This document shows positions 9,092 to 41,510 of a DNA stretch of 64,000 nucleotides, piece by piece. A model generated the notes under the pieces. It saw nothing but the letters and a program-made list of their open reading frames with translations. It searched no databases and was not told the origin of the DNA. Within the stretch, counting starts at the first letter, position 1. Every line of letters begins with the position of its first letter. The position numbers and the translations under genes were made by a program. Origin of the DNA: Minisyncoccota bacterium (GTDB taxonomy: Bacteria; Patescibacteriota; Minisyncoccia; Phycocordibacterales; UBA6899); assembly GCA_035583355.1 (NCBI GenBank), contig DATEZQ010000011.1:19648-83647 (forward strand), in the 5' to 3' direction.

Positions 9092-11220
<2,129 letters not shown>

Positions 11221-11221
<1 letters not shown>

Positions 11222-11252
11222 AAAAAGAAGAAGCTTTGCTTCTTCTTTTTTT
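11221..11252 (+). terminator. Rho-independent terminator after gyrB
   Basis: aaaaaagaagaagc-tttg-cttcttcttttttt. Confidence 0.7.
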
Positions 11253-11650
11253 ATGCATCAATATTTGCTTACTTTGTGCTGATGATTACAGCGTCGGTCT
11301 TTTTGTCGGGATTATGCTCTTTTCATTCCGCTTCGCGCTCAATGTATTTTTATACACCTCGCTTGCGATGCTCATTCCAAAGAGCATGCTGCCGACAAAA
11401 ATCCTCGACGTTTCATTGAGTGAAAATATATTTTCCGAAAAAACTAAGTACATTTTTTGTTTTCTCTGGTGACTACTCGAAATAAAATTTGTGAAAAATT
11501 TAAGAGAGAAATTTCAAATCATAAGTTGGAAAAGTTGCAAGGGTTATATTAAAAAATGCAGATGGGAATGAGGGTGATCGGGGAGAAGGAAAAGAAGGAA
11601 AGAGTTAATACAAAAATCGTAATAAAACAAAATATCAAGTACGTCAAGTG

Positions 11651-11847: not shown

Positions 11848-12120
11848 CCCACTTGCAACTCGTTATGGAATACACATGGAGGAGTGGCTGCTCCTTTGTG
11901 TAAAATTTAATGAAGCACGAACCGGAAAACAGTGTTGTGCATCTTCCTCGGAGTGGCATAAAACCGCCACCAACAAGGATTATGCAACATGTCTCCTCAC
12001 CGAATGCGAGTGGGGCTGTTCTGCTATCTCAGAGGAAAGCTACTGTATCTGTTGCAGTTCCTCGCACTGCAAACATCCCTGTTTCGCTGCGACCTGCTGA
12101 TTTGACGCTCCAGAGTTTTT

Positions 12121-12165
12121 CTGTTACGCGCGCGCGTACGCACGCGCACGCACACGCGCGAAAAG
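12121..12165. repeat. (CG/CA)n alternating purine-pyrimidine tract
   Basis: ctgttacgcgcgcgcgtacgcacgcgcacgcacacgcgcg. Potential Z-DNA and slipped-strand tract just upstream of the probable start of the secreted-protein gene. Confidence 0.7.
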
Positions 12166-12176
12166 ATGAAGGGGCA

Positions 12177-13877
12177 TTGAGGAGGGTACTTGATGCTGCG
12201 CTTACTGGTGGTGATGTTCGCATTGCTGCGCTCAAGCCTTCGTCTACGCTTACGCGTTTCTTTGCTTGGCTTCTCATTCCTGCGATGCTCATCACTCCAC
12301 TTGTTCCTGCGTACGCGAATGAGGCGCCGCTTGCAGACCGTGTTGCAAGTGATGTTGCTGCAATCGTTGCTGATTCAGCAATCGCAGAAAGTGTTACTGA
12401 GCCTGCTGGGGCTGTTGCTGCTGTCGCTGAGGTCGCTGAAGCAGATGCGCCAAGTGCGACTACTGGCGAAGTGCAAGTTGATACTCCTCCATCTATCCCA
12501 GGTAATGAAACTCCCCTAAGCGAAGAAACAACTGGCGAGAGTTCGGGGACTTCTGGTGACGTAGTCTCTCCTTCAACTCCTGACACCCCGGCAACTGGGG
12601 AAGTGGTGACTGTTGGAGAAGATCAGGTGCCTTCTTCGGGTGGCGCAAGTGCAGATGCTGGTGCGCCTGCTGCTACAAACACGCCGAGCGAAGTTATACC
12701 CGCAGATAGCGATTCGTCAGTAAACACGCCGAGTGAAGTAATCGTTTCGGATAATGATTCTTCTGCAACAACTTCGACGACAACGATTCCTGTGGATGAT
12801 TCTACGCAGACTGATTCGATGGCTTCGACCACTGAGGATGGGGTTACGCCGATCTTTGACATTGCACCTGATGAGGTGATGAGCAATGTTGATGCTATTC
12901 GTGCACGCTTGCGCAATGAAATGCGCGGACAGCTTCGTGATGAGGTTCGTAATGAGGTGAAGCAGGAGGTGCGACGTGAAGTTGAGGAAGAGGTCTATCG
13001 CGGATGTAAAAATCTTGATGGTACTGGCTACTACTGTATTCCTGATGCGAAGAGTTTTGGATCACCGGTTATTGAGAATGAGCGATCGATCGAAGTTGTC
13101 GTGCAGCCTGATCCGATTACTGGAAATAAACAGATCTTCTTGGTGCGCGGAGCTAGTACGATACAGCTCACGCATGGAACAGATGATAATGTTTTCCCTG
13201 TACTTGATCCACTTTCAGATACGCTTGTATGGCAGTCACTGCAAAGTGGTCGTTGGCAAGTTGCCTTTGCACACTTGAGTGATGTTGGTGTGCCGAAGGT
13301 GCAGTATCTCACGAGTGGTGAAAATAATTTTAATCCAAAGATTTATGCGGGCCGCATTGTATGGCAAGCATGGGTTGATGGTAACTGGGAGATATTCACT
13401 GCAATGCCGTCGAAAGATAAAATTCCTGATGAAGCACTTTCGGCTGAACATCGCGCCGCAGGTGTGGGTGGTGATTGGCAGGTGAAACGTATCACCGCAA
13501 ATAGCGCTCCCGACATGTTCCCAACTATTACGGGCGAGACAATCACGTGGCAGGCAGTCGATGGTGGTGTCTGGCAGGTCTTTGCCTATGACATCGCAAC
13601 GAGTGTTGCGCATCGTGTTTCGAAGCCAGGAGTGAAGAGTGATTCACCGAAGGTTGCGCTTGTTTGGAATGAAGAAGATGCAAATGGTCAGATGCGCATG
13701 GTGGGTACGAGTGTCGATGGCTCTGAGTCATTCGATTTCACTGCACTTGCAAGACGTATCGTTGATAATACTAAGGGAGAACCAAAATCTCCTGTTTCGA
13801 ATACGGAAATCGTTGTGGTTACTCCAGTTGCAGTACGCACGGAGTCTGAGGCTTCATCGACACCTCCCGTGAACTAA
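12177..13877 (+). CDS. Secreted protein: signal peptide, acidic Ser/Thr/Asp-rich linker, TolB/PD40-like beta-propeller repeats
   Basis: Signal peptide FFAWLLIPAMLITPLVPAYA|NE. Low-complexity linker. Repeated W-Q motifs (TLVWQSLQSGRWQVAF, GRIVWQAWVDGNWEIFTA, TITWQAVDGGVWQVFAYD) typical of PD40 propeller blades. The ORF-track start at 11910 would put 90 aa ahead of the signal peptide, so I propose the TTG at 12177. The start is uncertain. Confidence 0.5.
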   Translation: MRRVLDAALTGGDVRIAALKPSSTLTRFFAWLLIPAMLITPLVPAYANEAPLADRVASDVAAIVADSAIAESVTEPAGAVAAVAEVAEADAPSATTGEVQVDTPPSIPGNETPLSEETTGESSGTSGDVVSPSTPDTPATGEVVTVGEDQVPSSGGASADAGAPAATNTPSEVIPADSDSSVNTPSEVIVSDNDSSATTSTTTIPVDDSTQTDSMASTTEDGVTPIFDIAPDEVMSNVDAIRARLRNEMRGQLRDEVRNEVKQEVRREVEEEVYRGCKNLDGTGYYCIPDAKSFGSPVIENERSIEVVVQPDPITGNKQIFLVRGASTIQLTHGTDDNVFPVLDPLSDTLVWQSLQSGRWQVAFAHLSDVGVPKVQYLTSGENNFNPKIYAGRIVWQAWVDGNWEIFTAMPSKDKIPDEALSAEHRAAGVGGDWQVKRITANSAPDMFPTITGETITWQAVDGGVWQVFAYDIATSVAHRVSKPGVKSDSPKVALVWNEEDANGQMRMVGTSVDGSESFDFTALARRIVDNTKGEPKSPVSNTEIVVVTPVAVRTESEASSTPPVN

Positions 13878-13879
13878 AC

Positions 13880-16800
13880 ATGATAAGAAATAACGCCTAC
13901 AATCTTTTCGAAAAGACATGCACAATGATGCTCATCATGGCGTTGTTTTTGGTCAGCAGTGGTGGTCCAGAAAGCATGCGGTTTTTTGTTCATCCACTGG
14001 GAGTAAAATCGGCTGAAGCGGCGCAGACGAGCTATGGCAAGGAGTTGCGTACTGCCGAGTTTGTGCTTGGTGGTGGAAGTGATAATGCGTTGCGCGCGAG
14101 TGGAGTTATAGGGTATGCGGGGGCGAGCACCTGGGCAACTACAAAGCCCGCACTGCTTACTGGTGGTGATGTGGTAAAACTTTTGGGTACGGGAATTTCT
14201 GTCATCAACGCACAGCTTGATGTGTCATATGAATTTCCATCCGCGGCTGCCGCGACAGTTTCTGAGAATAAGATTTATCTTGACGTTGAAGGTGCTGCAA
14301 CGCAGGGGAGTAACACTCCTGTCAATGAAGCGAATGGCGCATCTCCACTTGCGGTTATGGCTGGAGGAACAGGATACCTACGTACAATACATGATGTAAC
14401 CAGTTTTTTTGATCGACAGTCTGACGCTACTTGGAATAGTGGTGTGCACGTGATAGCTGCGGTTGCTCCGACGCTTACTGCTGGTAATCGTGCGCTCACG
14501 ACTGCAAAGCTGCTTGTTACGTATGAGGTTGATATCGATCCGGCGATTACACAGCTCGTGAAGACAGTGCGTATTCCGCTTGCATCGAGTGGGGTTGCAG
14601 GAAATACAGGCTCTCGCACTACGGTTTGTGCAGCAGGGGCGACATGTCCTTTCACTTTTGATACTACAGTTATTCGTGATCTTGCTGCTGATGCAGATAT
14701 TCTTGATGCGCATATTGAATTTTTTGCGCAACAAGCAAGTAATGTAAATTCAACATACAGACTTCAGTTCGCAGGCGGCACTGCATCGCCGCTCTATGCT
14801 TGGAATGAGGCAGTTGCAGATACACACAATACACGTGTGCTTTGGGGAGCATTGCCGATCGGCGGGGCGAATCTGCGTGCGCAAACTGCACACACATTGA
14901 ATCTCGTGAACACTGCGGGTGGCGCGCCGCTTTATGCAACGGGTGGTGAGGTAGTGATTACCTATGTATTCAATCCGACTGCTGCAACACAAACAGAGAC
15001 GATTCGTTACTTTGTTGATCAGGAAACAGCATCACCTGGATCGGGAGTGAATGCTGCTATTGCGGGAACGAATGTGGTCATTGCAAATGATGCTCCTGTT
15101 GTGGAAAAGGCATGGTATCGTATGCAGCTTGCCCCAGTGTTCGCTGCGGCAACAACGATGACCGTCACCCATAGTGTGGGTGGGGTAAATGGTACTGCAC
15201 AAGTGTACCAGTTTCCTGCTCCTTCAACAGCGCGAAGAGCTGCAAACACACCCGTGGTGATTCATAGCCTTACTCCCGAAACGCTTTCATTCTCCGCGTC
15301 TACTCCAGTCGGTGGGACGTTTCGCTTTAGCGCAGCGGGTGGATCTCCTGTCGCTATCGAGGTAGTGACGACATTTTCTTGGAGTTATTCAATTTCGAGT
15401 AGTCAGACGAAGACTGCATTGTTTGGTGCATCACTCCCATCGATTGGCCGAAATGTTGGAACTGTCGATAAGGTGCGTCATACGATGCTGTATCTTCCTG
15501 AACGTGCAGCAAAAACATTTGAAGATGGATTTCTTGAGGCGCACTATACACATCATGATGCGTCAGCAATTTCAATTTCAAGTGGTATTCATATAGGTTT
15601 TGGGACTTCGACGACTGCAAATGCCTTGACTGTGACAGAGCTAGGCGGAACAGGGGGAACATATTCATATAGCGCTCGGTTGTATGCGAAGTTTACTTCT
15701 TCAGCTATTGGGTCATCAGTAAATTTGACCAAGCAACGTTATCCGTTTGCGGTTGAAGAGAGCGTTGATGTTGCTGCTGACTTCACCTACTTCGCGAACA
15801 CTGTTGTACTTACTTATACGGTTGCGGCACCACTTGCATATAGTCCACATCCAAAACAGTTGCGTACTGCTGAGTTTTTACTTGGTGGGGGATCTGAACA
15901 GGCGACGCGCGCAACGGGAGTGTATTCGTATGCAGGTGCATCTTGGAATACAACAAAACCTGCAGGAGAATTGATTAAGTTGCTTGGAGATGATGCGGAG
16001 GTCGTGAGTGCGTACGTGGATTTATCTTTCTCTACTACGAACATTGTGGCAGTCACCGGACTCACTGTATTGGGGGATATTACGGGTTCTATAGATAGCG
16101 ATGCAACAAACGTTACGCTTTATACTGCACCGATGAATCAAATTGTGGGTGGAGGAAGTACGGTAACGGGTTATTACCATGCTCAGATTGATGCAACAAG
16201 AATGTTTATTGGACAGTCGAGTGCATCGCTCAATGCGGGAGTGAATTTTGGGATTGGTGTTGCTGCGACAGGTCCAACTCGTGCACTCACTTCTGCAAAA
16301 CTTGTGGTGACCTATGAGAGCACGTACTCACTCAATCCAATGGTAGGAACGAAGACCGTACGTTTCCCACTCGATTCGACAACAGGAACAGATGTCGGCT
16401 CCAAGACTACAACATGCACCACCACAGCTTGCGGATTTACCTATAACGCCGCAATTGGAGATTTGCTCAACAGTGATACTGCGAATATTCTTTCGGTGCA
16501 TGCAGAGATTTCTGCACTTGCGAACTCGGCGGGTGCGGCAGCAGCACGTGCATATACAATTACTATTGCACATTCTCCTGGTTCAAGTGCAACATATAAT
16601 CCCGTTGAGACCGCACTGGACTCAACAGGCCTTCGTCTTATGTGGGGGATGCCTATCGGGGGAAATGACTTTGTAGTGAATACTCCAAGAACGCTTAATA
16701 TCGGTGCGAACACGACAAATGTTCCCCTTGCGCATCTTGGTGGAGAGATCGTCGTGACTTATGCATATTCAAGTCGCTCGACAAATCAATCGGAGACACT

Positions 16801-19249
16801 CGTGTATCCACTTGGGCAACTTGCCGTTGCTCCAGCAGTGGGTGCAACAACAACGATAGGTACTTTTACTCCCGTACTTCCCATGCAGGATGCACAAGTG
16901 CAGCAGATGTGGCTCCGAGTGCGCTATTCACCGCATAGTTCACTTTCTGCAATTATTGAGGGAAGTGTCGGTGCGTCATTACTTGGACGCACTTATGCAG
17001 CAGGGACAATGACTAATCGTGGAGGTGGTGAAACTTATATTCTCCATGATATGACTTCATTGATAGGAGCATATGCCACTTCAGGGACTGCAATTGGTGC
17101 AAAGATAAAATTCGTGACCGCAGCAGTTCCCGCAACTGCAGAATTATTTATCACATATGTTTGGGACGGGAGTCATGGTGGTACGCAAGCGCGTAGCGTT
17201 TCATATGTAGCGCCACAGCAATATGCTCCAAGCACGGCTGTTGCGTCAACAACATATCCTTTTGCAATTGATTTTGCGCGTGATGTGGGGAAGATATTCC
17301 GAGCTGCTCAGCTTGAAACATTTATTGCTCATGGAAACAGTACCACCATTACACGTGGAGGAATTGAAACATCGCTAAACGGAGTTACTACAACACTGAC
17401 CGAAGCAGGCGCAGCAACCTCGTATCCATATAATACCGTGATGGTTGATGGATTTACTGCAACCGATTTGTGGGGTAGCGCGAGCATGCCGAGTAGTACG
17501 GTTGCACTGCAAGTTCGAAATGCGAAGACCACCACAGTGAATTATCTGAACTTTAGTAACGTGCTCACGGTTACTTACGAGGAAATGCAAGCGGTACGAA
17601 GGGCAACATTTATTCAGGCGGGTTTCCGTATATATGCGGACAATGGAGCACTTACGCCTCTTGATTCTTGGTACCCGGGGTATCCGAATCAAATCGGAGA
17701 TGATCAGGAGATGACCGTAGCTAATAGACCGGTCAGAAAGAGTGACAGTGTACGTTTGCGTATCGCACTTGCCGTGAGTACCTCGACAATGCCTATAGAT
17801 GATCGCGCATTTCAATTGCAGTCCGCATTGAAGCCGATTGGTACATCTTGTAGTGCGATTGCGCCTGCATCATGGACTGCGGTAAGTAGTACGGGAGACT
17901 GGTCGGGATACAACAATACAGGTCTTGCAGCGTCAGCGATTATACCGACTCCACTTGTTGCGGTGAGTATTGGACATGTTCCACAACTCTATTCCGAAGA
18001 TGGAATAACGGGCACAAATCCAAATGCTGCGAATGTTAGCGAGACAGGAGATGTCATTGAGTATGATTGGGCATTAAAACGCAATAATGCAGTTAAAGAT
18101 GCTGACTATTGTTTCCGTGTCACTGAAAGTGATGGTACTCCAATTTTTGGATATGACTTCTACCCAGTTATGCGTACTGCGGGGTATACACCAGAAATCG
18201 CGTCTTGGCGTTGGGTGGACAACTATGCAAATGAAGCAGGTTGGCAGTCGTTGCTCGGTGCTGGATTGAATATTGCACCATCGGGGCTTCCAAATAGAAC
18301 TATTATAAAGCTACGTGTTGCTTTGCAGGATGTTGCGAATGAATCCGGAAGTAATGAGCGTTACGCAGTGCAGTGGTCTGAAGATCCAACATTTACAACA
18401 GGGGTATTCTTTGCAGACTTAGAAGGGAATTGTGTTGCAACAAGTACGTTTTGCTATGCAATAGGAATTGGTGCTGATGATACGAGCCTCAGTGTACAGA
18501 CCATAGGTGGTACGGTGCTCGGGAGGCATAATGAAGCAACGAGTTCTTCAACATTCTCTCCTGCAGCAAATAGTCTGACTGAGATGGAATATACACTGAC
18601 TTCACAAAGGCAGCGTACTGGACAGGCATATTACTTCAGGCTTTTTGACGTGAATAGGGGAATACCGTTACTCAAGAGCGCCTCTGTATACCCATCACTT
18701 ACTGCTGAGGGTGCGACGGTCAATGGTCTTGTTAGTGGTGTAAATGCTGGTGTTACTATAGATGGCTTAGTAACAACAGGCACGACAACTGCAACAACTA
18801 CTCCATTCGGAATGTTGACGATGGATACAATTGCAATACTTGCGCACCGCATCAGTATCTCCACAAATGCGATGATGGGTTATCAGGTGAATATGCAAGC
18901 AGAGGGTGATCTTAAGAATTTGTACGGTGAGATCGTTCCGTCAATTGCGGGCGCTCCTAATGCAGCACCGGTCAGTTGGAGTGTTGGTTGTCCAGCGCTG
19001 AGCGTAGGATGTATTGGCTACCATACTTCTGATCATACATTGAGTCCTGACGGTGTACCTGATCGTTTCGCTGCGAGCGATACGTGGGCAGAATTCGCGA
19101 CTTCAACGCCTTCAGAGGTTGGCTATTCTGATCTACCAACTGTAGGGACGGAGCAGTTCGATGTTGTGTATAAAATCGAACCCCATGCAGCTACTCCTCC
19201 AGGGTCTTATCGTACAAATATTTTGTATATAATTACCCCTGTCTATTAA
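13880..19249 (+). CDS. Giant (1789 aa) secreted/surface protein with an internal ~600-aa tandem duplication
   Basis: ATG 2 nt after the upstream stop, suggesting translational coupling. N-terminal hydrophobic segment. Repeat unit KELRTAEFVLGGGSDNALRASGVIGYAGASTW...KLLVTYEVDIDP recurs as KQLRTAEFLLGGGSEQATRATGVYSYAGASWN...KLVVTYESTYSLNP. Thr/Ala/Gly/Val-rich, very few charged residues. Confidence 0.6.
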   Translation: MIRNNAYNLFEKTCTMMLIMALFLVSSGGPESMRFFVHPLGVKSAEAAQTSYGKELRTAEFVLGGGSDNALRASGVIGYAGASTWATTKPALLTGGDVVKLLGTGISVINAQLDVSYEFPSAAAATVSENKIYLDVEGAATQGSNTPVNEANGASPLAVMAGGTGYLRTIHDVTSFFDRQSDATWNSGVHVIAAVAPTLTAGNRALTTAKLLVTYEVDIDPAITQLVKTVRIPLASSGVAGNTGSRTTVCAAGATCPFTFDTTVIRDLAADADILDAHIEFFAQQASNVNSTYRLQFAGGTASPLYAWNEAVADTHNTRVLWGALPIGGANLRAQTAHTLNLVNTAGGAPLYATGGEVVITYVFNPTAATQTETIRYFVDQETASPGSGVNAAIAGTNVVIANDAPVVEKAWYRMQLAPVFAAATTMTVTHSVGGVNGTAQVYQFPAPSTARRAANTPVVIHSLTPETLSFSASTPVGGTFRFSAAGGSPVAIEVVTTFSWSYSISSSQTKTALFGASLPSIGRNVGTVDKVRHTMLYLPERAAKTFEDGFLEAHYTHHDASAISISSGIHIGFGTSTTANALTVTELGGTGGTYSYSARLYAKFTSSAIGSSVNLTKQRYPFAVEESVDVAADFTYFANTVVLTYTVAAPLAYSPHPKQLRTAEFLLGGGSEQATRATGVYSYAGASWNTTKPAGELIKLLGDDAEVVSAYVDLSFSTTNIVAVTGLTVLGDITGSIDSDATNVTLYTAPMNQIVGGGSTVTGYYHAQIDATRMFIGQSSASLNAGVNFGIGVAATGPTRALTSAKLVVTYESTYSLNPMVGTKTVRFPLDSTTGTDVGSKTTTCTTTACGFTYNAAIGDLLNSDTANILSVHAEISALANSAGAAAARAYTITIAHSPGSSATYNPVETALDSTGLRLMWGMPIGGNDFVVNTPRTLNIGANTTNVPLAHLGGEIVVTYAYSSRSTNQSETLVYPLGQLAVAPAVGATTTIGTFTPVLPMQDAQVQQMWLRVRYSPHSSLSAIIEGSVGASLLGRTYAAGTMTNRGGGETYILHDMTSLIGAYATSGTAIGAKIKFVTAAVPATAELFITYVWDGSHGGTQARSVSYVAPQQYAPSTAVASTTYPFAIDFARDVGKIFRAAQLETFIAHGNSTTITRGGIETSLNGVTTTLTEAGAATSYPYNTVMVDGFTATDLWGSASMPSSTVALQVRNAKTTTVNYLNFSNVLTVTYEEMQAVRRATFIQAGFRIYADNGALTPLDSWYPGYPNQIGDDQEMTVANRPVRKSDSVRLRIALAVSTSTMPIDDRAFQLQSALKPIGTSCSAIAPASWTAVSSTGDWSGYNNTGLAASAIIPTPLVAVSIGHVPQLYSEDGITGTNPNAANVSETGDVIEYDWALKRNNAVKDADYCFRVTESDGTPIFGYDFYPVMRTAGYTPEIASWRWVDNYANEAGWQSLLGAGLNIAPSGLPNRTIIKLRVALQDVANESGSNERYAVQWSEDPTFTTGVFFADLEGNCVATSTFCYAIGIGADDTSLSVQTIGGTVLGRHNEATSSSTFSPAANSLTEMEYTLTSQRQRTGQAYYFRLFDVNRGIPLLKSASVYPSLTAEGATVNGLVSGVNAGVTIDGLVTTGTTTATTTPFGMLTMDTIAILAHRISISTNAMMGYQVNMQAEGDLKNLYGEIVPSIAGAPNAAPVSWSVGCPALSVGCIGYHTSDHTLSPDGVPDRFAASDTWAEFATSTPSEVGYSDLPTVGTEQFDVVYKIEPHAATPPGSYRTNILYIITPVY

Positions 19250-19298
19250 TAGAGTAGAGAGAGCGAAAAACGGGGTATAAAAGTTCAAAAATGAAGAA

Positions 19299-19330
19299 AG
19301 AAGCATGACGAATGCCATGCTTCTTTTTTG
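19299..19330 (+). terminator. Rho-independent terminator after the giant gene
   Basis: gaagcatg...catgcttc hairpin followed by a T6 run. Confidence 0.5.
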
Positions 19331-19424
19331 ATTTCTTAGTCATGGTGGGCAGGCAATAAAATATGAGCGCAATTTCTGTGGAAAAGTAAAAAATATCCAG
19401 TATTTTCAGTGTATAATATAAGTA

Positions 19425-20615
19425 GTGAACACACATTCGCACAAAGCGACGCAGCAACTCTTCGCCCTGTTTTTTGGGTTTTTGATGCTGCCGATTTTCG
19501 CTTTTGCAGCCTCCTTTGAAGTGACTCCAAAGGTTATTGATGTGAAAGGAAAAGTACGCGAGATCAGCCATCATAATTTGACGCTGAAAGCGACTGGCGC
19601 AGGCGTCTCTACACTGTATGTTTGGGTTGTTGATGTTGATCAGGTGAAGGGTGATCTCGCAAAGAGTGATATGAGTGGCATCAATGCAAACTCACTTGAC
19701 GCAAGCCCCTCACGCTGGATCGAAATACCCCGTTCAATCAACTTGCTTCCTAAGGAAGAACAGACGGTACCATTTCAAATGCAAATACCTGCGCGTGCAA
19801 GACCAGGCAATTATCATGTGGCGCTAAAATTCGCATCGGGTCAAACGCAATTTGATGCACAGAAGTGCGAAAGTTGTACTGAACAAGTATTGATGAATAT
19901 CGAAGTCACTGAAGATATTCGAGAGAAGTTACAACTGTTTTCATTTACTGCTGCGAAGAATATTTTTGTTCGACCGAGTGCTGAATTTAGTTTTGCAGTT
20001 GAGAATACAGGTAACCGTGCGCTTGTCCCTAATGGCAAGATACGAATTTTTGATAATACGGGAAAAGAAGTCGGGCTTGTTGATGTAAATGCAGACGGGA
20101 AACAAGTGGAACCAAAAGGCAAAGAGTTATTAGCTGCATCGTGGGCGGCAGGGGGACACTTCGGAAAATATAAAGCCATGCTTGATATGAGTTATGGTCA
20201 ACGTGGTACGATGCAAGACGTCGTATATTTCTGGGTTATTCCTTGGTCAAAGATGCTTGGTTTCGGTTTCACGCTCATTGTGCTCATGGTGCTCTTTATG
20301 TTATTTGCGCGTGGACGAGATCTTGCTCGCCCACAGTATGCATATGCAGAAGCAGTAGAACCTACACCTGCGCAAGAAGCAGAAAGTCAGGTTGAAGAAA
20401 ATGAAATACGCGAGGGCATGCTCAGTCGCATTGCGCGACGCTTTAGGAGGAATGGAAATCGACTCGAGGATGTCATTAACGAGAGCGAATTGAGCAGTCT
20501 CACTGAAGTTAATATCCCTGTGCGTACACGTACTGTTCCTCCTGCACACTATTCCGTGCAGCTCGAACAGAAGGTTCGCGTGGTTCCTGAGAATCATATC
20601 GTGCGCCTCCGCTAG
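19425..20615 (+). CDS. Cell-surface protein, signal peptide plus C-terminal TM anchor (paralog 1 of 3)
   Basis: Signal peptide LMLPIFAFAASFEV. W..IP....L.P...TVPF.MQIPARARPGNYHVALKF block. C-terminal TM GFGFTLIVLMVLFMLFARGR followed by a basic stretch. Architecture resembles the Firmicute DUF916/DUF3324 WxL-locus anchored proteins. That link is hypothesis only. Confidence 0.55.
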   Translation: MNTHSHKATQQLFALFFGFLMLPIFAFAASFEVTPKVIDVKGKVREISHHNLTLKATGAGVSTLYVWVVDVDQVKGDLAKSDMSGINANSLDASPSRWIEIPRSINLLPKEEQTVPFQMQIPARARPGNYHVALKFASGQTQFDAQKCESCTEQVLMNIEVTEDIREKLQLFSFTAAKNIFVRPSAEFSFAVENTGNRALVPNGKIRIFDNTGKEVGLVDVNADGKQVEPKGKELLAASWAAGGHFGKYKAMLDMSYGQRGTMQDVVYFWVIPWSKMLGFGFTLIVLMVLFMLFARGRDLARPQYAYAEAVEPTPAQEAESQVEENEIREGMLSRIARRFRRNGNRLEDVINESELSSLTEVNIPVRTRTVPPAHYSVQLEQKVRVVPENHIVRLR

Positions 20616-20620
20616 TCAAT

Positions 20621-21739
20621 ATGATAGAGAGGCATATTCACAAAAAAATCAGTAAAAAGGCCATACTTTTCGGTATGGTCTTTTGCCTTTTGCTTCCCAG
20701 TACATTGTATGCACAGGAGGAGTTCCATCCGGAAGGTTTTTCGGCTGAACCTGCGATACTTCGTGTCTCCGTGGAAAGAGGAGGGCAGTTTCGCTCGTTC
20801 TTTAGTCTTCTAAATTCAGGTGATACGGCACTTACGCTCGATATTCTTGTCGCTGATTTCGTACCAATAAACAGTACGGGGGGAGTGCAAAAGATGGAAG
20901 GTATCCCTGAGAAGGATGATCCTGTGCGCGCATCGGGTTGGTTTTCAATTCCTGAGGGTCCGCTTATAGTTCCTCCAAGGCAGAAGTTGCGCGTCCCATT
21001 CTCTATTTCGGTCCCTTCAGATGCAAATCCTGGTGGGCGCTCCGTCGTTATTGAGCTTGAAACCAGGGGTGGATCTGCGCGTGAGCGTATGAATATGCTC
21101 AACTTCGTGACTGTGCCAGGAGAAGCGAAGGAGCAGCTCACTATTCTTTCATTTGGACGAGATGCCATAATGACCGCTACTGCACATGGTACCTTTAGTC
21201 TTTTGCTCAAGAATGACGGCGAGACACATTTGCGACCGGAGGGGGAAGTGGTGGTACGTAATATGTTCGGAGTTGAACGTGGCCGTTATTCACTCGAAGG
21301 TCTACTTGCTCCGGGTACTATCATACCCAATGCAAAGCGCAGTGTTGAGTATAAGTGGGTTGGCTCACTGAGTGCATTTGATTTTGGCCTATGGAATGCA
21401 CGCGTTGCGCTGCGTTACGGTGAGGGTGGAGCAAACTCTGTGGGAGACCGTACCTTTTTCCTCGTACTTCCATGGAGGGCATTTCTGCTTATTGTATTTA
21501 TCTTGGGTGGTTCGGTGCGATTCTTTATGTATGCGGTGGCGCGTTTACGAAAAGACCTTGCGCATATTTCCATAGACAATGATGGTGCTGCCGTTGAGAG
21601 AACCGTAAGCGTTCAGTTGCTCATCATTCCGTTTATCGCAGGCCTGTTGTTGCTTGTTGTGGTGACAGGAACAATGTTTTCTCTTCTTTCGGGGAAAAAT
21701 GAGGGGTCATTTGAGCGAGTACAAAAAGTAAATCGATAG
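20621..21739 (+). CDS. Cell-surface protein, signal peptide plus C-terminal TM anchor (paralog 2 of 3)
   Basis: Signal peptide. WFSIPEGPLIVPPRQKLRVPFSISVPSDANPGGRSVVIELE block aligns with paralog 1. C-terminal TM AFLLIVFILGGSVRFFMYAVARLRKD. Confidence 0.55.
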   Translation: MIERHIHKKISKKAILFGMVFCLLLPSTLYAQEEFHPEGFSAEPAILRVSVERGGQFRSFFSLLNSGDTALTLDILVADFVPINSTGGVQKMEGIPEKDDPVRASGWFSIPEGPLIVPPRQKLRVPFSISVPSDANPGGRSVVIELETRGGSARERMNMLNFVTVPGEAKEQLTILSFGRDAIMTATAHGTFSLLLKNDGETHLRPEGEVVVRNMFGVERGRYSLEGLLAPGTIIPNAKRSVEYKWVGSLSAFDFGLWNARVALRYGEGGANSVGDRTFFLVLPWRAFLLIVFILGGSVRFFMYAVARLRKDLAHISIDNDGAAVERTVSVQLLIIPFIAGLLLLVVVTGTMFSLLSGKNEGSFERVQKVNR

Positions 21740-21780
21740 ACGCACAAACTTTCCACAGGTTGTGCGTTTTTTATACAGAG

Positions 21781-22010
21781 TTGTCCACAGTTTTATGCAC
21801 AGTTTATTAACAAATGTAGTATAATTACAGTTAGGAGGCCGTCCTCCACGAGTAAAGATATTCGATGATCTTCTCGTGCGCATAAGAAGCGGGTTTTCCA
21901 CTTTCGGCGTTATTTATAACGCTTATAGCAGCTGTACCACTCGGTACAACTTTTGCGCCCCACTTATACGTTTAAATAGCGTCCCATAACGCTGTTTAGC
22001 AGGTTTTAAA
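21781..22010 (+). promoter_or_regulatory. Conserved promoter plus long 5' leader of surface-protein gene A
   Basis: Shares ordered blocks with the leader of gene B: ttgtccacag, tgtagtataattaca (TATAAT -10-like), taggagg...cctcc hairpin, gcgcataag, gcgggttttccactttc, gtcccataac. Confidence 0.5.
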
Positions 22011-23195
22011 ATGACATATTCACAATCCCTTGCTTTCTTTAGGGAGCAGAAGGCGTTTTCCGCCTTTCTGTCTGTCATTGTGATTATCAGTTCGGTAGGA
22101 GCAGTTTTTGCAACGCAAGTTGCCTCAGCTGCAAACCTTGCTTTTGGAAATGTGACCGATACGATGAGTAACGCTCGCCTTTCAACTGCAGGGACAACGT
22201 ATTACTCAGCACATACATTCAAGTTCACTCCGAAAGTGGACATCACTGGCGGACAAGCGGTGACGTTTACTTTCCGCGCAGACGATGCAAGTATGGGCAG
22301 AGGGAATACAGGTACAAATTTCGATGCAGCATTGATTGATAACCAGGACGTTTCCATTCCAGGAAAGGTCATCGGTTCAAGCTGTGGAGGTGGTGAGAAT
22401 TTCTCATTCACTACTACAGCTACAGTGTTGACGCTGAGTACGTGCCCAGGTAATACCATTGCCTCTACATCACCTTTTGTTGTTACTTTTGGTAGCAGTA
22501 CGAGGAATATGATAAAGACTCCGGCACCTGGTCCAACGTATGATGCGTATAGCTATCAGATCGATATTGCTGGTCCAGCAAGTCAGTTCTCGTCAACGCT
22601 TGTTGCGCTCGTCAGTAATGTACTGGTTTCTGCTTCAGTGGATCCAGTGTTCAACTTCACTATTTCGGGTCTTGCAAGTAGCACTACACGTGATGGAAAG
22701 TTGATCGATATTGATACCTCTACTTCAAGTATCGCTTATGGAGCACTTCCTGTGGGGACACCGGTCACCGCAGCACAAGAGCTTCAGGTGACAACAAATG
22801 CAAAAACGGGCTTCAATGTTACGGTAGTCGCTGATCAACCATTCCAGTCATCAAATGGCTCGGTGATCGATGGCTTCAGTGCAACAGCGGGAGCACCACA
22901 GGCATTTGTTGCGCCTACGGGCATACTTGCAGATGATACGACATGGGGTCACATTGCGTTGTCTACGGATGATGCGAATATTCCCGGCGCTGCAACATTG
23001 AGTGGTGATAAGTGGACGGGAGACTTTGTGCGCGGTATTCCTGTTTCTGTCTTTGGTAATGCTTCGTCAACCGCAGGTGTTGGCGTAGGCTTGGGTACGA
23101 CTACGGTCTTTTATAGAACGCAGATCAGCCCACTTCAAGAGGCGGCAACAGATTACTTCACCAATCTCATCTACGTCGCAACTCCAACGTTCTAG
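22011..23195 (+). CDS. Thr/Ser/Gly/Val-rich secreted surface protein A (S-layer-like or WxL-like)
   Basis: 394 aa. N-terminus MTYSQSLAFFREQKAFSAFLSVIVIISSVGAVFATQVASA (signal). Almost no charged residues. C-terminus FVRGIPVSVFGNASSTAGVGVGLGTTTVFYRTQISPLQEAATDYFTNLIYVATPTF is shared with B. Confidence 0.6.
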   Translation: MTYSQSLAFFREQKAFSAFLSVIVIISSVGAVFATQVASAANLAFGNVTDTMSNARLSTAGTTYYSAHTFKFTPKVDITGGQAVTFTFRADDASMGRGNTGTNFDAALIDNQDVSIPGKVIGSSCGGGENFSFTTTATVLTLSTCPGNTIASTSPFVVTFGSSTRNMIKTPAPGPTYDAYSYQIDIAGPASQFSSTLVALVSNVLVSASVDPVFNFTISGLASSTTRDGKLIDIDTSTSSIAYGALPVGTPVTAAQELQVTTNAKTGFNVTVVADQPFQSSNGSVIDGFSATAGAPQAFVAPTGILADDTTWGHIALSTDDANIPGAATLSGDKWTGDFVRGIPVSVFGNASSTAGVGVGLGTTTVFYRTQISPLQEAATDYFTNLIYVATPTF

Positions 23196-23369
23196 CGATA
23201 ACACCTAAAGAAAGCAAAACGGAGAAAACGCACCATTTATGGAGGCGTATTTTCCGTATTAGGAAAGAATTTGCATTTGCTATTCGGTTATGAAAGGGGG
23301 TATGGGGATAACTTTTTACTGTCAACGAGGTTGTGAGAAGCTTATGCACATCTTGTGCATACTTTTTTA

Positions 23370-23609
23370 TTAGTTGTCCACAGGTTTATCAGCAGGTTGT
23401 TCACATCTGTAGTATAATTACATGTAGGAGGTAATCCTCCGCCAGCTGGTGAAAAAGCCATCTGGGGCGCATAAGTTTGCGGGTTTTCCACTTTCCATAG
23501 CGTCGTCGAAAAACGCTACAGCACTTATGTATTTACGCTTGTAATTACATTTTTGCACCCACGCTTATTCGTCTAAGCGGTGTCCCATAACACTGCTTGT
23601 ATAGTTCTT
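23370..23609 (+). promoter_or_regulatory. Conserved promoter plus long 5' leader of surface-protein gene B
   Basis: Same ordered conserved blocks as the leader of gene A, see 21781-22010. The two proteins' N-termini and C-termini are also conserved. Confidence 0.5.
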
Positions 23610-24785
23610 ATGAATTACACAAAATTGTTTGCTTACTTCAGGGAACAGAAGGCATTTACTGCTTTCCTTAGTGCCTTGATGGTTATTAGTACCGTCTCAG
23701 CAGTATTTGCAGGTCGCTATGCGTCCGCAGCTACTATCGCAATCAGAAATGTAAGCGATACGCTGGACAATGCGCGTATTAGTACGGGTGCAGTCACACA
23801 GTACTCAATACATAAGTTTGTATTTCAGCCAAAGGTTGATATTGCTGAGGGTTCACCCCTTAGTTTCAAGTTCTACCCTAATGCTGATGTTACAAATTTC
23901 GATCTTAGCCTCCTTTCTCTGGGTTCCGATATCGCAGTTGCGGGAAAGACCGTCAACGCCACACTCGGAGCTTGTGGAGCAGCTGACTTTATGGCTACGG
24001 TTGCGGCAGATCAGCTTGATCTGACGCCATGTGTTGGTCATGGAGTAATGTCATCGTCAACTGTATATACAGTTACGATTGGTAGCGCTGCGGGTAATAA
24101 GATCGTGAATCCTCAGCCAACTTCAGCTACAGCAGCGAACTACATGATTGAGCTCTTCAACACTGCAACAACGCAGTCAACACGTATTCGTGTTGCACTC
24201 GTTGAGAATGTTGACGTGACCGCTCAGGTTGATCCAATCTTTGACTTCACTGTTTCTGGTATCGCAAGTACGACGGTTACGTCATACGGTGCTATCACGA
24301 CAGACTCAAGCACATCGACGATCAACTACGGAATTCTCCCAGTAAACGTTGCGCAGACCGCTGCACAAATGCTCCAGGTGAAGACCAATGCACGTCAGGG
24401 CTTCAATGTCACAGTCGTTTCAGACCAGCCATTCCAGTCTCAAAACGGTGCAATCATCGATGGTCTTGCAGCATCGGCTCCGGCAGCGTGGTCAGTTCCA
24501 ACAGCAAATGTAAATGATGACATTACGTGGGGTCATATCGGTGTCTCTTCGGATGATACTGCTATCCCAAATGGTGGCATCTATGCATATGCAGGACAGG
24601 CATATACTGGTGATTTCGTTCGCGGAACAGCAGTATCTATCTTTGGAAATGCATCATCGACCGCAGGTGTTGGTTCAGGAACAGGTACGACAACCGTCTA
24701 CTACAAGACTGAAATCAGCCCACTCCAGGAAGCAGCAACGGATTACCACATGAATCTCATTTACGTGGCAACCCCAACCTTCTAA
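23610..24785 (+). CDS. Paralogous surface protein B
   Basis: Start ATG at 23610 (MNYTKLFAYFREQKAFTAFLSALMVISTVSAVFA) by alignment to A (MTYSQSLAFFREQKAFSAF...). The ORF-track start at 23580 is an upstream TTG. C-terminus ...TTTVYYKTEISPLQEAATDYHMNLIYVATPTF. Confidence 0.6.
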   Translation: MNYTKLFAYFREQKAFTAFLSALMVISTVSAVFAGRYASAATIAIRNVSDTLDNARISTGAVTQYSIHKFVFQPKVDIAEGSPLSFKFYPNADVTNFDLSLLSLGSDIAVAGKTVNATLGACGAADFMATVAADQLDLTPCVGHGVMSSSTVYTVTIGSAAGNKIVNPQPTSATAANYMIELFNTATTQSTRIRVALVENVDVTAQVDPIFDFTVSGIASTTVTSYGAITTDSSTSTINYGILPVNVAQTAAQMLQVKTNARQGFNVTVVSDQPFQSQNGAIIDGLAASAPAAWSVPTANVNDDITWGHIGVSSDDTAIPNGGIYAYAGQAYTGDFVRGTAVSIFGNASSTAGVGSGTGTTTVYYKTEISPLQEAATDYHMNLIYVATPTF

Positions 24786-24802: not shown

Positions 24803-24837
24803 GAAATACACTCCTTTATGGGGGGTGTATTTTTTTC
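24803..24837 (+). terminator. Rho-independent terminator after gene B
   Basis: aaatacactcc-tttatgg-ggggtgtattttttt. Overlaps the ORF-track start of sufB at 24818, so I moved the sufB start to 24863. Confidence 0.55.
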
Positions 24838-24862
24838 TGCTTCTGCTATATTGCGTAGAACG

Positions 24863-26191
24863 ATGCTAAATAGCGCAGTACAATTTGGTCCAACCGAGGA
24901 GTTGGTGCGACATATTTCTGCGGTGAAAGATGAACCAGCTTGGATGCTCGATCTTCGTCTTAACGCACTACGTCTGTGGCAAGAGACTCCAATGCCCACA
25001 TGGGGGCCTGATCTTTCAGGGCTCGATTTTAGTGGTATGTCGTATTTTGCCGATCCTCTTGTTGATGAGCAGTACTCATGGAGTGGGGTACCTAAGGAGA
25101 TCAAACAAACATTCATTGACCTCGGTATACCTGAAGCAGAGCGCGAGTACTTGGGTGGTGTTGGGGCGCAGTTCGACTCGGGGTCAGTGTATCACCACTT
25201 GAAAGCAACACTTGAGGCAAAGGGGGTGCTATTTGAAAACATGGATACTGCGGTGGAAAAGTATCCAGAACTTGTGCGCGAGTATTTTATGACTTCTTGT
25301 GTGGCAATTGGGGAACATAAGTTTGCCATGTTGCATGCCGCTTGCTGGAGTGGTGGGACGTTTATCTACGTCCCCAAAGGAGTCACTGTGGAGTTGCCAC
25401 TTCAAGCGTATTTCCGCATGAATAAAATGCACTCCGCACAGTTCGAACACACACTCATTATCGCGGATGAGGAGTCGAGTATTACCTATATCGAAGGGTG
25501 CTCGGCGCCGCAGTACACCGCATCATCATTGCATGCAGGTTGCGTGGAAATATTTGTGAAGAGGAATGCGGCAGTGCGCTATATCTCTGTGGAGAATTGG
25601 TCGAAGAATACGTTTAACCTCAATACGAAGAAAGCGATTATCGGTGCTGATGCCAGGATGACATGGGTAGGCGGGAATATGGGAAGCAAGGTAAGTATGC
25701 TCTATCCCTCATCCGTACTCCTCGGCGATCGCGGGAAGAGTGAAGCGCTTAGTGTTGTTGTTGCGGGAGCGGGGCAAGTACAAGATGTGGGCGCAAAGGT
25801 GATTCATATTGGTAAGGATACTTCGTCAATGATACGCTCGAAGTCAATTTCCAAAGATGGTGGAATTTCTCATTACCGAGGCTTAGTGAAAATTCTTCCA
25901 ATGGCAATTGGCGCAACCACTCATGTGCAATGTGATGGGTTACTGCTTGATAACAATTCTATTTCAAGCGCACTTCCTGTGTACAAGATAGAGAACGCAC
26001 ATACCCACGCTGCACACGAGGCGCGCGTTGGTCGTGTTGATATGGAGGCACTTTTTTATGCAAAAAGTAGGGGGCTTAGTGAGGCTGAGGCAATACGTAT
26101 GCTCGTGGGTGGTTTCGTTGCGCCGATTGCTGCCGCACTCCCTTTGGAGTATGCAATTGAATTCAATAGACTTCTTGATCTGGAGTTTTAA
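24863..26191 (+). CDS. sufB: Fe-S cluster assembly protein SufB
   Basis: SufB/SufD family C-terminal beta-helix region. Conserved EHTLIIADEESSITYIEGCSAP and HAAHEARVGRVDMEALFY blocks. Start taken at the first ATG after the terminator. Confidence 0.85.
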   Translation: MLNSAVQFGPTEELVRHISAVKDEPAWMLDLRLNALRLWQETPMPTWGPDLSGLDFSGMSYFADPLVDEQYSWSGVPKEIKQTFIDLGIPEAEREYLGGVGAQFDSGSVYHHLKATLEAKGVLFENMDTAVEKYPELVREYFMTSCVAIGEHKFAMLHAACWSGGTFIYVPKGVTVELPLQAYFRMNKMHSAQFEHTLIIADEESSITYIEGCSAPQYTASSLHAGCVEIFVKRNAAVRYISVENWSKNTFNLNTKKAIIGADARMTWVGGNMGSKVSMLYPSSVLLGDRGKSEALSVVVAGAGQVQDVGAKVIHIGKDTSSMIRSKSISKDGGISHYRGLVKILPMAIGATTHVQCDGLLLDNNSISSALPVYKIENAHTHAAHEARVGRVDMEALFYAKSRGLSEAEAIRMLVGGFVAPIAAALPLEYAIEFNRLLDLEF

Positions 26192-26240
26192 TGCTCCTCG
26201 ACACGAAACGTATAAGCCATTATGATTAGATAAATAGCGT

Positions 26241-27374: not shown

Positions 27375-27387
27375 TAAAATAACACAT

Positions 27388-28122
27388 ATGTCTACGTTGC
27401 AGCTTTCAAAAGTTTCGGTGAGCGCTCATGAGAAGGTGGTGGTCAAAGATTTTGATCTTACGCTCCATCTTGGAGAACTCTATGTGCTGATGGGTGCAAA
27501 TGGGTCCGGGAAGTCTTCACTTGTGAACGGCATCTTCGGTCACCCTAAATACACTCTAACGGGCGGAACTATTTTGCTTGACAATGAAGACATAACGCAG
27601 TTTGTTACTGAGGAAAAAGCACGCAAGGGTTTGTTTCTTTCGATGCAACACCTCCCAAATATTGCAGGTGTAACTCTTGTAAATTTCCTTCACCGTATTG
27701 CGAAAGAAGTGTATGGAAATACAGATTCTCCGATTGCGTTTTATGATGACCTCGTGAAGTCCGCAGATGAATTTGGTCTTGATAAGGGGTTATTGCTACG
27801 GGAAGTGAATAACGGTCTTTCGGGTGGAGAGAAGAAGCAAGCAGAATTGCTCCAGCTTATTGCACTGCGCCCCCAGTTCGCATTCCTTGATGAGATCGAT
27901 GCAGGCATGGATCTTGATGTGCAGAAGAAGCTACACAGGGTTATTGATCACTTACGTAAGAGTGGGATGGGTATTGTGCTCGTCTCCCATCACTTGCACA
28001 TACTCAAGGAACTCGCACCAGAATCCGTACTTGTGATGAAGGAAGGACGTATCGTCGAGTCTGGTGGTGCTGAGCTCGTCGATCGCATCCTGTCCGAAGG
28101 TTTTGCGGGGCTTGTCGAGTAA
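27388..28122 (+). CDS. sufC: Fe-S cluster assembly ATPase SufC
   Basis: Walker A GANGSGKSSL, ABC signature LSGGEKKQAELLQL, Walker B FAFLDEIDAGMD, H-loop. SufC-like N-terminus (LQLSKVSVSAHEKVVVKDFDL). Confidence 0.85.
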   Translation: MSTLQLSKVSVSAHEKVVVKDFDLTLHLGELYVLMGANGSGKSSLVNGIFGHPKYTLTGGTILLDNEDITQFVTEEKARKGLFLSMQHLPNIAGVTLVNFLHRIAKEVYGNTDSPIAFYDDLVKSADEFGLDKGLLLREVNNGLSGGEKKQAELLQLIALRPQFAFLDEIDAGMDLDVQKKLHRVIDHLRKSGMGIVLVSHHLHILKELAPESVLVMKEGRIVESGGAELVDRILSEGFAGLVE

Positions 28123-41504: not shown

Positions 41505-41510
41505 TAAAAA

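Follow-up and report, generated by a model that had tools for sequence, protein, structure and literature searches.

What kind of surface structure is encoded by a run of six genes for exported proteins in an uncultured, ultrasmall bacterium of the Candidate Phyla Radiation (CPR)? Members of the CPR, or Patescibacteria, live as obligate epibionts, for which the means of finding and keeping a host are a central open question. The genes considered here, P1 to P6, lie in a 64,000-nucleotide stretch of contig DATEZQ010000011.1 (the window, in what follows) from a metagenome-assembled genome (MAG) labelled 'Candidatus Paceibacterota bacterium'. They are consecutive open reading frames (ORFs) on the plus strand at 11910-24785, as an initial annotation of the sequence had described them, and are flanked by gyrB (9095-11221) on one side and sufB/D/C (24818-28122) on the other; the opposite strand has nothing but short ORFs that overlap them. 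P3, P5 and P6 (locus tags VJ579_04310, VJ579_04320 and VJ579_04325) are all named 'hypothetical protein', and Rfam and tRNA scans of the block gave no matches. The initial annotation had left a choice between a complex resembling the WxL/csc loci of Firmicutes, an S-layer and a novel envelope appendage. The last of these came nearest to the truth, and a system of that sort has since been described under the name of Pam pili. We consider it probable that the block encodes a pilus of the Pam type, a thin surface filament assembled by donor-strand exchange without an usher or a sortase, in a member of the class Paceibacteria. The homologies, predicted folds, presence or absence of a linker strand, gene neighbourhoods and lack of LPxTG signals, plausible sortase and WxL motifs on which we draw are observed or computed.

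The recognition of Pam pili dates only from 2026 and concerns a single cultured species of Saccharimonadia; the preprint that describes them reports two filaments of Candidatus Mycosynbacter amalyticus solved by cryo-electron microscopy (bioRxiv 10.64898/2026.03.03.709456). According to the same source, the pilins are PamA and PamB; a C-terminal transmembrane helix is kept by PamC and PamD, which are predicted to be chaperones of the PapD/FimC kind; PamT is a tip subunit without a linker; PamR is an RbmA-like terminator or anchor with an N-terminal donor strand and a C-terminal transmembrane segment; and there is no usher. The NCBIfam model NF058581 (CPR_Pam_pilin_C, 'Pam pilus system pilin subunit'), with a curated cut-off of 55 bits, derives from this preprint. 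The kind of system is known from the preprint and this one model; what is new here is a distant family, another CPR class and a set of new accessories.

P5 and P6, a pair of candidate pilins

P5 (22011..23195, plus strand) and P6 (23580..24785, plus strand; NCBI places the start at 23610, giving 391 aa) were rightly recognised at the outset as paralogues with a conserved C-terminal motif: they share 52% identity over 403 aa (E = 1e-120) and end in ...DYxxNLIYVATPTF. P5, a member of the pilin family alignment A1, consists of a signal peptide (..VASA/AN), an N-terminal beta-sandwich, a linker and a C-terminal acceptor domain whose last residues are YVATPTF, while the C-terminal domain of P6 covers aa 245-401. 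Motif alignment places the linker, a putative donor strand, at about 22608-22670 in P5 (LVSNVLVSASVDPVFNFTISG) and at about 24198-24260 in P6 (VENVDVTAQVDPIFDFTVSG; as a peptide, VENVDVTAQVDPIFDF), on the plus strand in both. Neither protein has a match in Pfam, and the sole NCBIfam match of P6 is to NF058581 (E = 7e-5, 22.9 bits), spanning model positions 3-148 of 148 at the extreme C-terminus. The same model is matched by 20 of 42 close P6 homologues and by 32 of 45 more divergent members taken from an exhaustive profile search (best E = 1.5e-10; P0280 reaches 32.8 bits). Because the divergent members score better, the P6 family appears to grade toward the curated Pam pilins, yet it stays below the NCBI naming threshold.

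The AlphaFold2 model of P6 has a predicted local distance difference test score (pLDDT) of 81.8 and comprises two all-beta domains, of which the N-terminal one (residues 45-198) is mostly above 90; confidence dips at the linker, residues 200-210. Positions conserved at 90% or more number 47 of 192 in the linker and C-terminal domain versus 9 of 158 in the N-terminal domain, and in PamA and PamB conservation is likewise concentrated in the linker and C-terminal domain (bioRxiv 10.64898/2026.03.03.709456). The linker, RVAIxxxVxVTAxVDxxFxFTV, is found in every pilin aligned, that is, in P5, P6 and 11 pilins from other genomes. When the pilin profile was compared with PDB sequences, it matched only donor-strand-complemented CfaE (2hb0, 3vac; E = 0.21), and the match was centred on the engineered CfaB donor strand, with VEKNITVTASVDPVID set against vdnvdVTAsVDtvfd in the family. 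The CfaE construct ends with this CfaB donor strand (...DLLQ) (PMC7075575). At E = 0.21 the likeness of the pilin linker to it is suggestive only. Direct searching of the PDB with the P6 sequence gave nothing relevant, and a profile search of a 5.8-billion-protein set with the family alignment listed close 'hypothetical' relatives and no named bridge to M. amalyticus.

P1 to P6 and the related protein P7, described below, contain no LPxTG sorting signal, the sole loose match to the pattern being LPRSG at residue 12 of P1. No plausible sortase was found either, and the only TLxTC string among the ORFs of the window sits inside the pilin P5. Both P5 and P6 end in ...ATPTF with no C-terminal transmembrane segment.

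The pilin unit also occurs at the C-terminus of longer proteins of 570-1022 aa (among P0208, P0231, P0245, P0254, P0261, P0277 and P0278), and P0254 itself (3077 aa) was matched in 11 stretches. In the subset that was scanned, one member also matches the NCBIfam model for TafC family fimbrial protein (4e-11) and two match choice-of-anchor B (1e-18). From their sequences, N-terminal fusions to the pilin unit appear common.

P2, a giant protein with a pilin-type C-terminal domain

P2 (13880..19249, plus strand; 1789 aa) is a candidate tip adhesin with a signal peptide, two long modules, a pre-domain and a C-terminal domain of the Pam pilin type. It was expected to be internally duplicated, and self-comparison bears this out: residues 56-646 align with residues 661-1233 at 29% identity over 607 aa (E = 4e-49), defining modules of about 590 aa each at 14045-15817 and 15860-17578. 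A conserved pre-domain of about 370 aa (about 17570-18676) leads to the C-terminal domain, aa 1600-1789 (18677..19246, all on the plus strand). The whole protein has no Pfam match up to E = 1, and its N-terminal 1600 aa have none in Pfam, NCBIfam or PDB. Residues 1600-1789, on the other hand, match the C-terminal domain of the P5/P6 family in hhalign with a probability of 97.5% (E = 5e-12), and this domain alone matches NF058581 (E = 4e-6, 26.9 bits) at model positions 3-148 of 148. That the candidate tip protein shares the C-terminal domain of the pilins, as these profile comparisons suggest, is a new point.

The difference between P2 and the pilins lies in the linker. In an alignment with P5, P6 and the 11 pilins of other genomes, P2 and 10 orthologues, short forms among them, have an unrelated segment (sYPSlxtEGAtl) in place of the pilin linker; a conserved Cys pair lies beyond this segment, and the remaining domain, including the C-terminal strand, is common to the pilins. 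On this alignment, putative polymerising subunits can be told from putative tip subunits by whether they have the VxVTAxVD linker. Among the P2 orthologues the N-terminal part is variable and the C-terminus conserved. The giant protein of one locus (L070) has 2076 aa and N-terminal modules that differ from those of P2, and short forms of about 440 aa consist of the pre-domain and C-terminal domain. FimH, PapG and CfaE, among other tip adhesins of fimbriae, are built from a variable N-terminal region and a conserved acceptor domain that has no donor strand. Because P2 has the same layout, we read it by analogy as a tip adhesin, which would make it a candidate host-recognition molecule.

P3 and P4, membrane-anchored proteins of a chaperone-like kind

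Between the giant gene and the pilin genes lie P3 (19425..20615, plus strand) and P4 (20621..21739, plus strand), which the initial annotation had described as paralogues anchored by a C-terminal transmembrane segment with a basic tail. They share 25% identity over 332 aa (E = 1e-17), and hydropathy indicates in each an N-terminal signal sequence and a C-terminal transmembrane segment followed by basic residues. P4, with a P3-like ectodomain architecture, has an extra transmembrane segment, the two being at aa 279-306 and 331-349. A hidden Markov model (HMM) of P3 orthologues matches P4 at 2e-20. P7 (48295..49386, plus strand), a third anchored paralogue that lies in a separate cluster at 40032-53319, is a distant member of the family: it scores E = 8e-6 in pairwise comparison with P3 and E = 5e-9 with the HMM, which contains P3 orthologues alone.

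The AlphaFold2 model of P3 (pLDDT 77; ectodomain mostly 80-94) shows a signal peptide, two beta-sandwiches (31-162 and 169-271), a transmembrane helix (274-301) and a cytoplasmic tail of about 100 aa that is predicted to be disordered and is conserved at its end. Two immunoglobulin-like (Ig-like) domains and a transmembrane helix are also the architecture given for PamC/PamD and PamR (bioRxiv 10.64898/2026.03.03.709456). Foldseek comparison of P3 with the PDB returned as its top match the WxLIP of E. faecium with a long WxL bound (9i25_C, 5e-12), followed by another E. faecium WxLIP entry (9i1y_A, 7e-11), RbmA (4kkp_B, 1e-10), the class 5 fimbrial chaperone CfaA (4y2o_A, 9e-10; also 4ncd and 6k73) and the chaperone CsuC (6fqa_B, 4e-8); many PapD-like ASH/SPD-2 domains are listed as well. 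Identity to the WxLIP structures 9i25_C and 9i1y is 15-16%, and because TM-scores are low P3 can be assigned only to the tandem Ig-like proteins of the WxLIP/PapD/RbmA kind. Orthologues, hydropathy and modelled fold together lead us to predict that P3 and P4 are chaperone-like proteins with tandem Ig-like domains and a transmembrane anchor. P4 could be either a second chaperone or an anchor or terminator of the filament. Given the high rank of RbmA in the fold comparison of P3, one of the two could fill the role of PamR.

The tail of P3 (window 20256-20612, residues about 278-396) ends in the motif LTEVNIP.R.RTVPP...HIVRL, in which R369, H391 and L395 are nearly invariant among orthologues. 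A disordered tail that ends in a conserved motif hints at the binding of a cytoplasmic partner.

Proposed assembly of the pilus

From these parts we infer polymerisation, polarity, chaperone function and anchoring as follows. All components would be exported via Sec. P5 and P6 would be the major pilins and form the shaft, each contributing an N-terminal beta-sandwich, a linker strand (VxVTAxVD...FxFTV) and a C-terminal Ig-like domain that is incomplete. Tethered to the cytoplasmic membrane by their transmembrane segments, P3 and P4 would cap the open C-terminal groove of exported P2, P5 and P6 with a strand of their own, in the manner of PapD, CfaA and WxLIP. The linker of an incoming pilin would then displace the chaperone by donor-strand exchange, and the fibre would grow at its base. 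With an acceptor domain and no donor linker, P2 could take up only the distal end; it would nucleate the fibre, finish at the distal tip and present some 1600 variable adhesin residues to the host cell. The basal subunit probably remains on an anchored protein of the P3/P4 type, which would tether the fibre. The two anchored paralogues may serve tip and shaft subunits separately, or one of them may be a PamR-like anchor.

Conservation of the locus

Co-occurrence of these gene families had been put forward as a check on the initial annotation. A scan of one genome per species yielded 227 pilin relatives, and 79 loci were retrieved, all ORFs of which were searched with HMMs. An anchored-family gene stands beside the pilin gene in 73 of the 79, a side-by-side occurrence far above chance. 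Each of the 79 is named after a CPR group or an unclassified MAG, the names including Paceibacteria/Parcubacteria and Kaiser-, Nomura-, Sung-, Harrison- and Lloydbacteria; several are labelled generically 'uncultured Candidatus Saccharibacteria', a label that could not be verified. An exhaustive profile search found 2,939 representatives at 50% identity (E <= 1e-3), 1,978 of them at E <= 1e-10, and the source names shown in the hit tables are all 'hypothetical protein'.

Three types of locus can be told apart. Type A, to which the P1-P6 block belongs, has a P1-like propeller gene, a giant or tip protein gene, a P3-type and a P4-type gene and one or more pilin genes; it is found in loci L001, L003, L025, L026, L037 and L070 and in part in eight more. 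The P3 orthologues come directly after the giant gene in such loci, and the P4 orthologues take the second position. Type B consists of a pilin, an anchored protein and a protein of about 640 aa that begins with a pilin-like domain and ends in dockerin repeats. Type C, found in about 17 genomes, comprises an fn3 protein, a MacB-type ATP-binding cassette (ABC) ATPase and permease, a 632-aa protein, a P7-type protein, a dockerin protein, a pilin, two cohesin-like/Ig proteins and a P1-like propeller.

The proteins of about 640 aa (12775-14670 in L002 and 36 similar ORFs, alignment A3) have after the signal peptide a DTISDS...SNHT..F motif, as in the N-terminal domain of the pilins, and continue with a Gly-rich spacer, Ig-like repeats and two dockerin repeats. 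As matches to the pilin HMM they were considered as larger, PamA-like pilins; this was rejected, since what they share with the pilins is the N-terminal and not the C-terminal domain, and dockerin repeats stand at their end. Their sequences suggest that these dockerin-bearing proteins mimic the pilus shaft or dock onto it.

Alternative explanations

Several points weigh against the reading of the block as a Pam-type pilus. Every NF058581 score obtained (23-41 bits) is under the 55-bit curated cut-off, and P5 alone gives no match to the model. The match to the CfaB donor strand (E = 0.21) is not statistically significant. Foldseek of the pilin model returned generic tandem Ig-like proteins only (MSCRAMMs, integrin legs, BslA) with low TM-scores from which the family is not identifiable, and PDB searches with the pilin sequence profile and fold found no Pam entry. 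The fold matches of P3 have similar E-values and TM-scores of 0.2-0.47, which would suit a chaperone, an RbmA-like anchor or another tandem Ig-like protein equally well. Likeness to PamA-D of M. amalyticus was judged from the NF058581 model and the descriptions in the preprint, and Pam pilins are reported there mainly in Saccharimonadia and Microgenomatia, not in Paceibacteria (bioRxiv 10.64898/2026.03.03.709456). The described pam operon has neither a coupled beta-propeller protein nor the dockerin modules of the sister loci, and the system is known here solely from its genes and predicted folds.

The closest competing explanation is a static surface complex of the WxL/Csc kind, in which P3 and P4 would hold P2, P5 and P6 by strand insertion, with no polymerisation. 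The likeness that the initial annotation saw to WxL/csc loci does hold for the fold of the anchored proteins: WxLIP is the top structural match of P3, and EfmWxLIP1 (E = 0.17) is the sole PDB sequence match of the family profile. The Pfam model WxLIP_PGBD (DUF916) is also matched below threshold by 8 of 23 anchored-family members (best 0.0056), although the score of 13.2 bits compares with a cut-off of 27.3, the same segment equally matches CARDB, NPCBM_assoc and DUF4832, and WxLIP_HBD (DUF3324) is not matched in the family at all. WxL clusters follow a similar logic, in that an anchored protein with two Ig-like domains is accompanied by small proteins and by one large protein with a shared C-terminal domain (PMC10599100, PMC9772566), and a strand from WxLIP is predicted to complete the WxL sandwich (PMC10599100). 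The likeness fails, however, for the partner proteins, which are not WxL proteins, and for the setting, which lacks LPxTG and lies in CPR loci. When 42 pilin-family members were scanned against Pfam-A up to E = 10, none matched a WxL model; the W-x-L tripeptide is absent from P5 and P6 and occurs in P2 just once, at residue 1397, upstream of the C-terminal domain, which has none; and the shared domain matches the Pam pilin model instead. WxLIP is moreover no better as a fold match than the other tandem Ig-like proteins. The linker, kept in the pilins and missing from the tip protein, is needed by a polymerising subunit and would have no role in a static complex, and on these grounds we regard such a complex as unlikely.

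Two further explanations are far less probable still. P5 and P6 might be S-layer proteins forming a two-dimensional lattice, with the other genes as unrelated surface neighbours. S-layers have been seen on CPR cells, and the low charge of P5 and P6, their Thr/Ser/Gly/Ala/Val-rich composition (52-54%) and the strong promoter-like site and structured leader described below, which suggest high expression, would all suit such a role. Pfam and NCBIfam, however, gave no match to an SLH or other S-layer domain in P5, P6 or their family; the C-terminal domain is homologous to that of a filament subunit and common to P2; in 73 of 79 loci the pilin gene has a member of the anchored, chaperone-like family beside it, a tight and widespread association; and the donor-type linker is conserved. 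The Pam pilin C-terminal domain and the conserved inter-domain strand thus speak against the S-layer that had been suggested, and we give it very little credence. Nor do we put much weight on a cohesin-dockerin adhesion scaffold, cellulosome-like or other, in which the shared C-terminal domain would be only a module for attachment to the envelope or cell wall. It is true that dockerin and cohesin-like proteins adjoin the pilin and anchored genes in most related loci, and in the window at 49389-53319, and that dockerin proteins of about 640 aa elsewhere bear the pilin-like N-terminal domain. The 11.9-24.8 kb block itself, however, holds no dockerin or cohesin, and dockerin modules could equally decorate a pilus and so coexist with one. 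A scaffold also leaves unexplained the difference in linker between pilin and tip protein and the matches to the Pam pilin model, and seems to us highly improbable.

Comparison with known systems

The Pam-type pilus proposed here shares with the described system a CPR host, Sec export, two paralogous pilins and two Ig-like transmembrane proteins of a chaperone-like kind. The pilins of both have an N-terminal beta-sandwich and a conserved linker; P2, P5 and P6 have the putatively incomplete C-terminal Ig-like domain, which in P2 and P6 matches NF058581 end to end, and the tip acceptor has no linker; neither cluster holds an usher, a sortase or a retraction ATPase. Unlike the Pam pilins, the P5/P6 family scores under the cut-off, which places it as a separate, more distant family, and its loci are in other CPR lineages. 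PamT is a single-domain protein, whereas the tip protein here would be a duplicated adhesin of 1789 aa with about 1600 extra residues. A MacB-type transporter and cohesin-like genes occur in the sister loci, no separate RbmA-like PamR was recognised in the block, and the flanking genes are gyrB and sufBCD rather than the ATP synthase or CorB context of Pam.

The WxL/WxLIP systems of Lactobacillales and Listeria (PDB 9i25, 9i1y) resemble P3 and P4 in signal peptide, two Ig-like domains and C-terminal transmembrane segment, and their clusters resemble the block in combining an anchored protein, small proteins and a large protein that shares their C-terminal domain. They differ in that the Firmicute clusters have WxL domains and motifs and an LPxTG partner, in that the anchored family matches the first Pfam domain of WxLIP below threshold and the second not at all, and in that P5 and P6, the partner proteins here, bear a donor-type linker suggesting polymerisation. 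Because WxLIP is predicted to complete the WxL sandwich by a strand, WxLIP, the PapD-type chaperones and PamC/PamD may be functionally of the same kind.

Chaperone-usher pili such as CFA/I (CfaA, CfaB, CfaE) offer further parallels: putative donor-strand exchange, capping by a chaperone, an incomplete Ig-like pilin domain, an invariant C-terminal pilin strand, a tip adhesin made of an adhesin region and a pilin domain without a donor strand, and a linker resembling VTAxVDP. CPR bacteria are generally regarded as monoderm, and in contrast to the chaperone-usher systems there is no outer membrane or usher here; the ORFs scanned with Pfam and NCBIfam included none that resembles an usher. The chaperone-like proteins are anchored by transmembrane segments, the pilins have two domains, the candidate donor strand is an internal linker instead of an N-terminal extension, and there is no significant sequence homology (E = 0.2). 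Sortase pili are likewise Ig-like fibres of monoderms with a large tip adhesin gene in the same operon, but the block holds no LPxTG, sorting transmembrane segment or plausible sortase, and its pilins end in a free, invariant ...YVATPTF.

The locus suggests that a related pilus system exists in Paceibacteria, where nearly all such genes are 'hypothetical'. In structure the anchored proteins match Enterococcus WxLIP, and a possible evolutionary link is thereby drawn from CPR pili to the poorly understood WxL clusters of lactic acid bacteria and Listeria, which are nowhere mentioned in the Pam preprint (bioRxiv 10.64898/2026.03.03.709456). It is possible, although we hold it to be rather doubtful, that CPR Pam-type pili and Firmicute WxL/WxLIP clusters are two branches of one ancient monoderm system of an anchored chaperone plus strand-complemented subunits, and that the Paceibacteria branch is a widespread, modular apparatus for host attachment with three locus types, built from pilins, giant variable adhesins, beta-propellers, dockerin and cohesin-like decorations and a MacB-type ABC transporter. 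If this were so, an appendage with about 2,900 representatives at 50% identity would be widespread and yet unannotated wherever source names are shown.

P1, a propeller protein coupled to the giant gene

P1 (11910..13877, plus strand) had been described as a PD40/TolB-like propeller protein with an acidic Ser/Thr linker, and it is one: its propeller repeats match NCBIfam TIGR04275 (E = 2e-14), with a weak match to TolB, and the linker is Ser/Thr-rich and acidic (D+E 13%). The parts follow one another as a hydrophobic segment (aa 114-135), a Ser/Thr/Pro-rich acidic linker of about 190 aa, a charged helix and the propeller; PDB and Pfam searches gave nothing except the propeller repeats. Hydropathy and orthologues leave P1 as either membrane-anchored or secreted. 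Signal peptides had been ascribed to all six proteins. For P1 this is doubtful, since 114 residues of the ORF, as delimited, come before its hydrophobic segment. The L003 orthologue keeps about 50 residues ahead of this segment (FSVTRA..ARKDEG.L.RVLDA.L.GGD), and also the AYA/N site. With the segment so deep in the ORF and conserved residues ahead of it, 11910 is an uncertain start; the true one lies somewhere between 11910 and about 12102. P1 may have a short cytoplasmic domain and a signal-anchor (window 11910-12290) rather than a plain signal peptide.

The ATG of P2 follows 2 nt after the P1 stop (TAA-AC-ATG), as had been noted, although one gene caller prefers an alternative P2 start at 13928. 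P1 orthologues lie directly upstream of the giant gene, abutting or overlapping it, in L001, L003, L025, L026 and L070, and the tight coupling of the two genes is accordingly conserved in these five loci. P1 is thus encoded by a conserved partner gene of the putative giant adhesin and could act as an envelope-spanning scaffold. The C-terminus of P1 was considered as a donor strand or terminator and rejected, being weakly conserved and unlike the pilin linker.

A second, type C cluster in the window

The cluster at 40032-53319 begins with an fn3/purple-acid-phosphatase-N protein and continues with a MacB-type ABC ATPase (43288), an FtsX permease (44709), a Cys-rich protein of 632 aa (46260), P7 (48295), a dockerin protein (49389) and cohesin-like/Ig proteins (50586, 51532). 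It corresponds to type C without the pilin gene and the P1-like propeller gene, both of which are present in about 17 other genomes. The anchored paralogue at 48295 had been taken to link the cluster to the block, a link that the matches of P7 to the P3 family and the same-family pilin in those orthologous clusters strongly support. The 49389 gene ends at 50582 and the next starts at 50586, while elsewhere the pilin gene sits between these orthologues; the type A block here carries two pilins and the type C cluster of the window none. The 49389 protein matches only the C-terminal half of the proteins of about 640 aa (E = 6e-58). The 632-aa protein at 46260, whose C-terminus looks similar by eye, was considered as a divergent carrier of the pilin C-terminal domain and rejected (hhalign probability 0.1%, no match to NF058581).

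Expression signals and other features

Expression signals were sought at the level of sequence patterns only. Terminator-like hairpins lie 3' of gyrB, P2 and P5, the one between P2 and P3 (19294..19329, plus strand) having a 14-bp stem and a T-run, and the best promoter-like site precedes P5. The unit upstream of P5 (21754..22010, plus strand) contains the promoter-like sequence TGCACA-N18-TATAAT (21796-21825) and a structured leader of about 180 nt that opens with a TAGGAGG-N4-CCTCC hairpin (21832-21847). A duplicate with a TATAAT box precedes P6 (23343..23609, or up to 23579 with the longer P6 ORF; plus strand), its terminator-like hairpin lying at 23343-23361 and its leader hairpin at 23425-23440.

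The two upstream units share 74% DNA identity, above the conservation of the coding regions (52% protein identity). Each contains a terminator-like hairpin, TGTAGTATAAT and the leader of about 180 nt, in which the TAGGAGG-N4-CCTCC hairpin (2 matches, with 0 expected by chance) is followed by the invariant GCGGGTTTTCCACTTTC and, immediately ahead of the start codon, by the hairpin CAGCGTCCCATAACGCTG. The folding energy of the leader is -53 kcal/mol (z = -3.5), with compensatory changes in 4 of 39 pairs among four sequences. Rfam gave no match to it, and outside this organism the element is present in its 81% relative alone; in L001 the unit is present at 8170-8450 and 9620-10010. The leader may be an mRNA-stabilising or regulatory element of a highly expressed structural gene.

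Directly 3' of gyrB, at 11200-11272, lies a near-perfect inverted repeat of 35 nt (97% complementary, 3-nt loop) flanked by A/T runs, which looks like a bidirectional terminator. Farther along, an ORF of 935 aa with a TTG start (31514-34321) has no Pfam match; it falls within the most GC-rich stretch of the window (55% versus about 48%) and has a very similar orthologue in L001 (E reported as 0).

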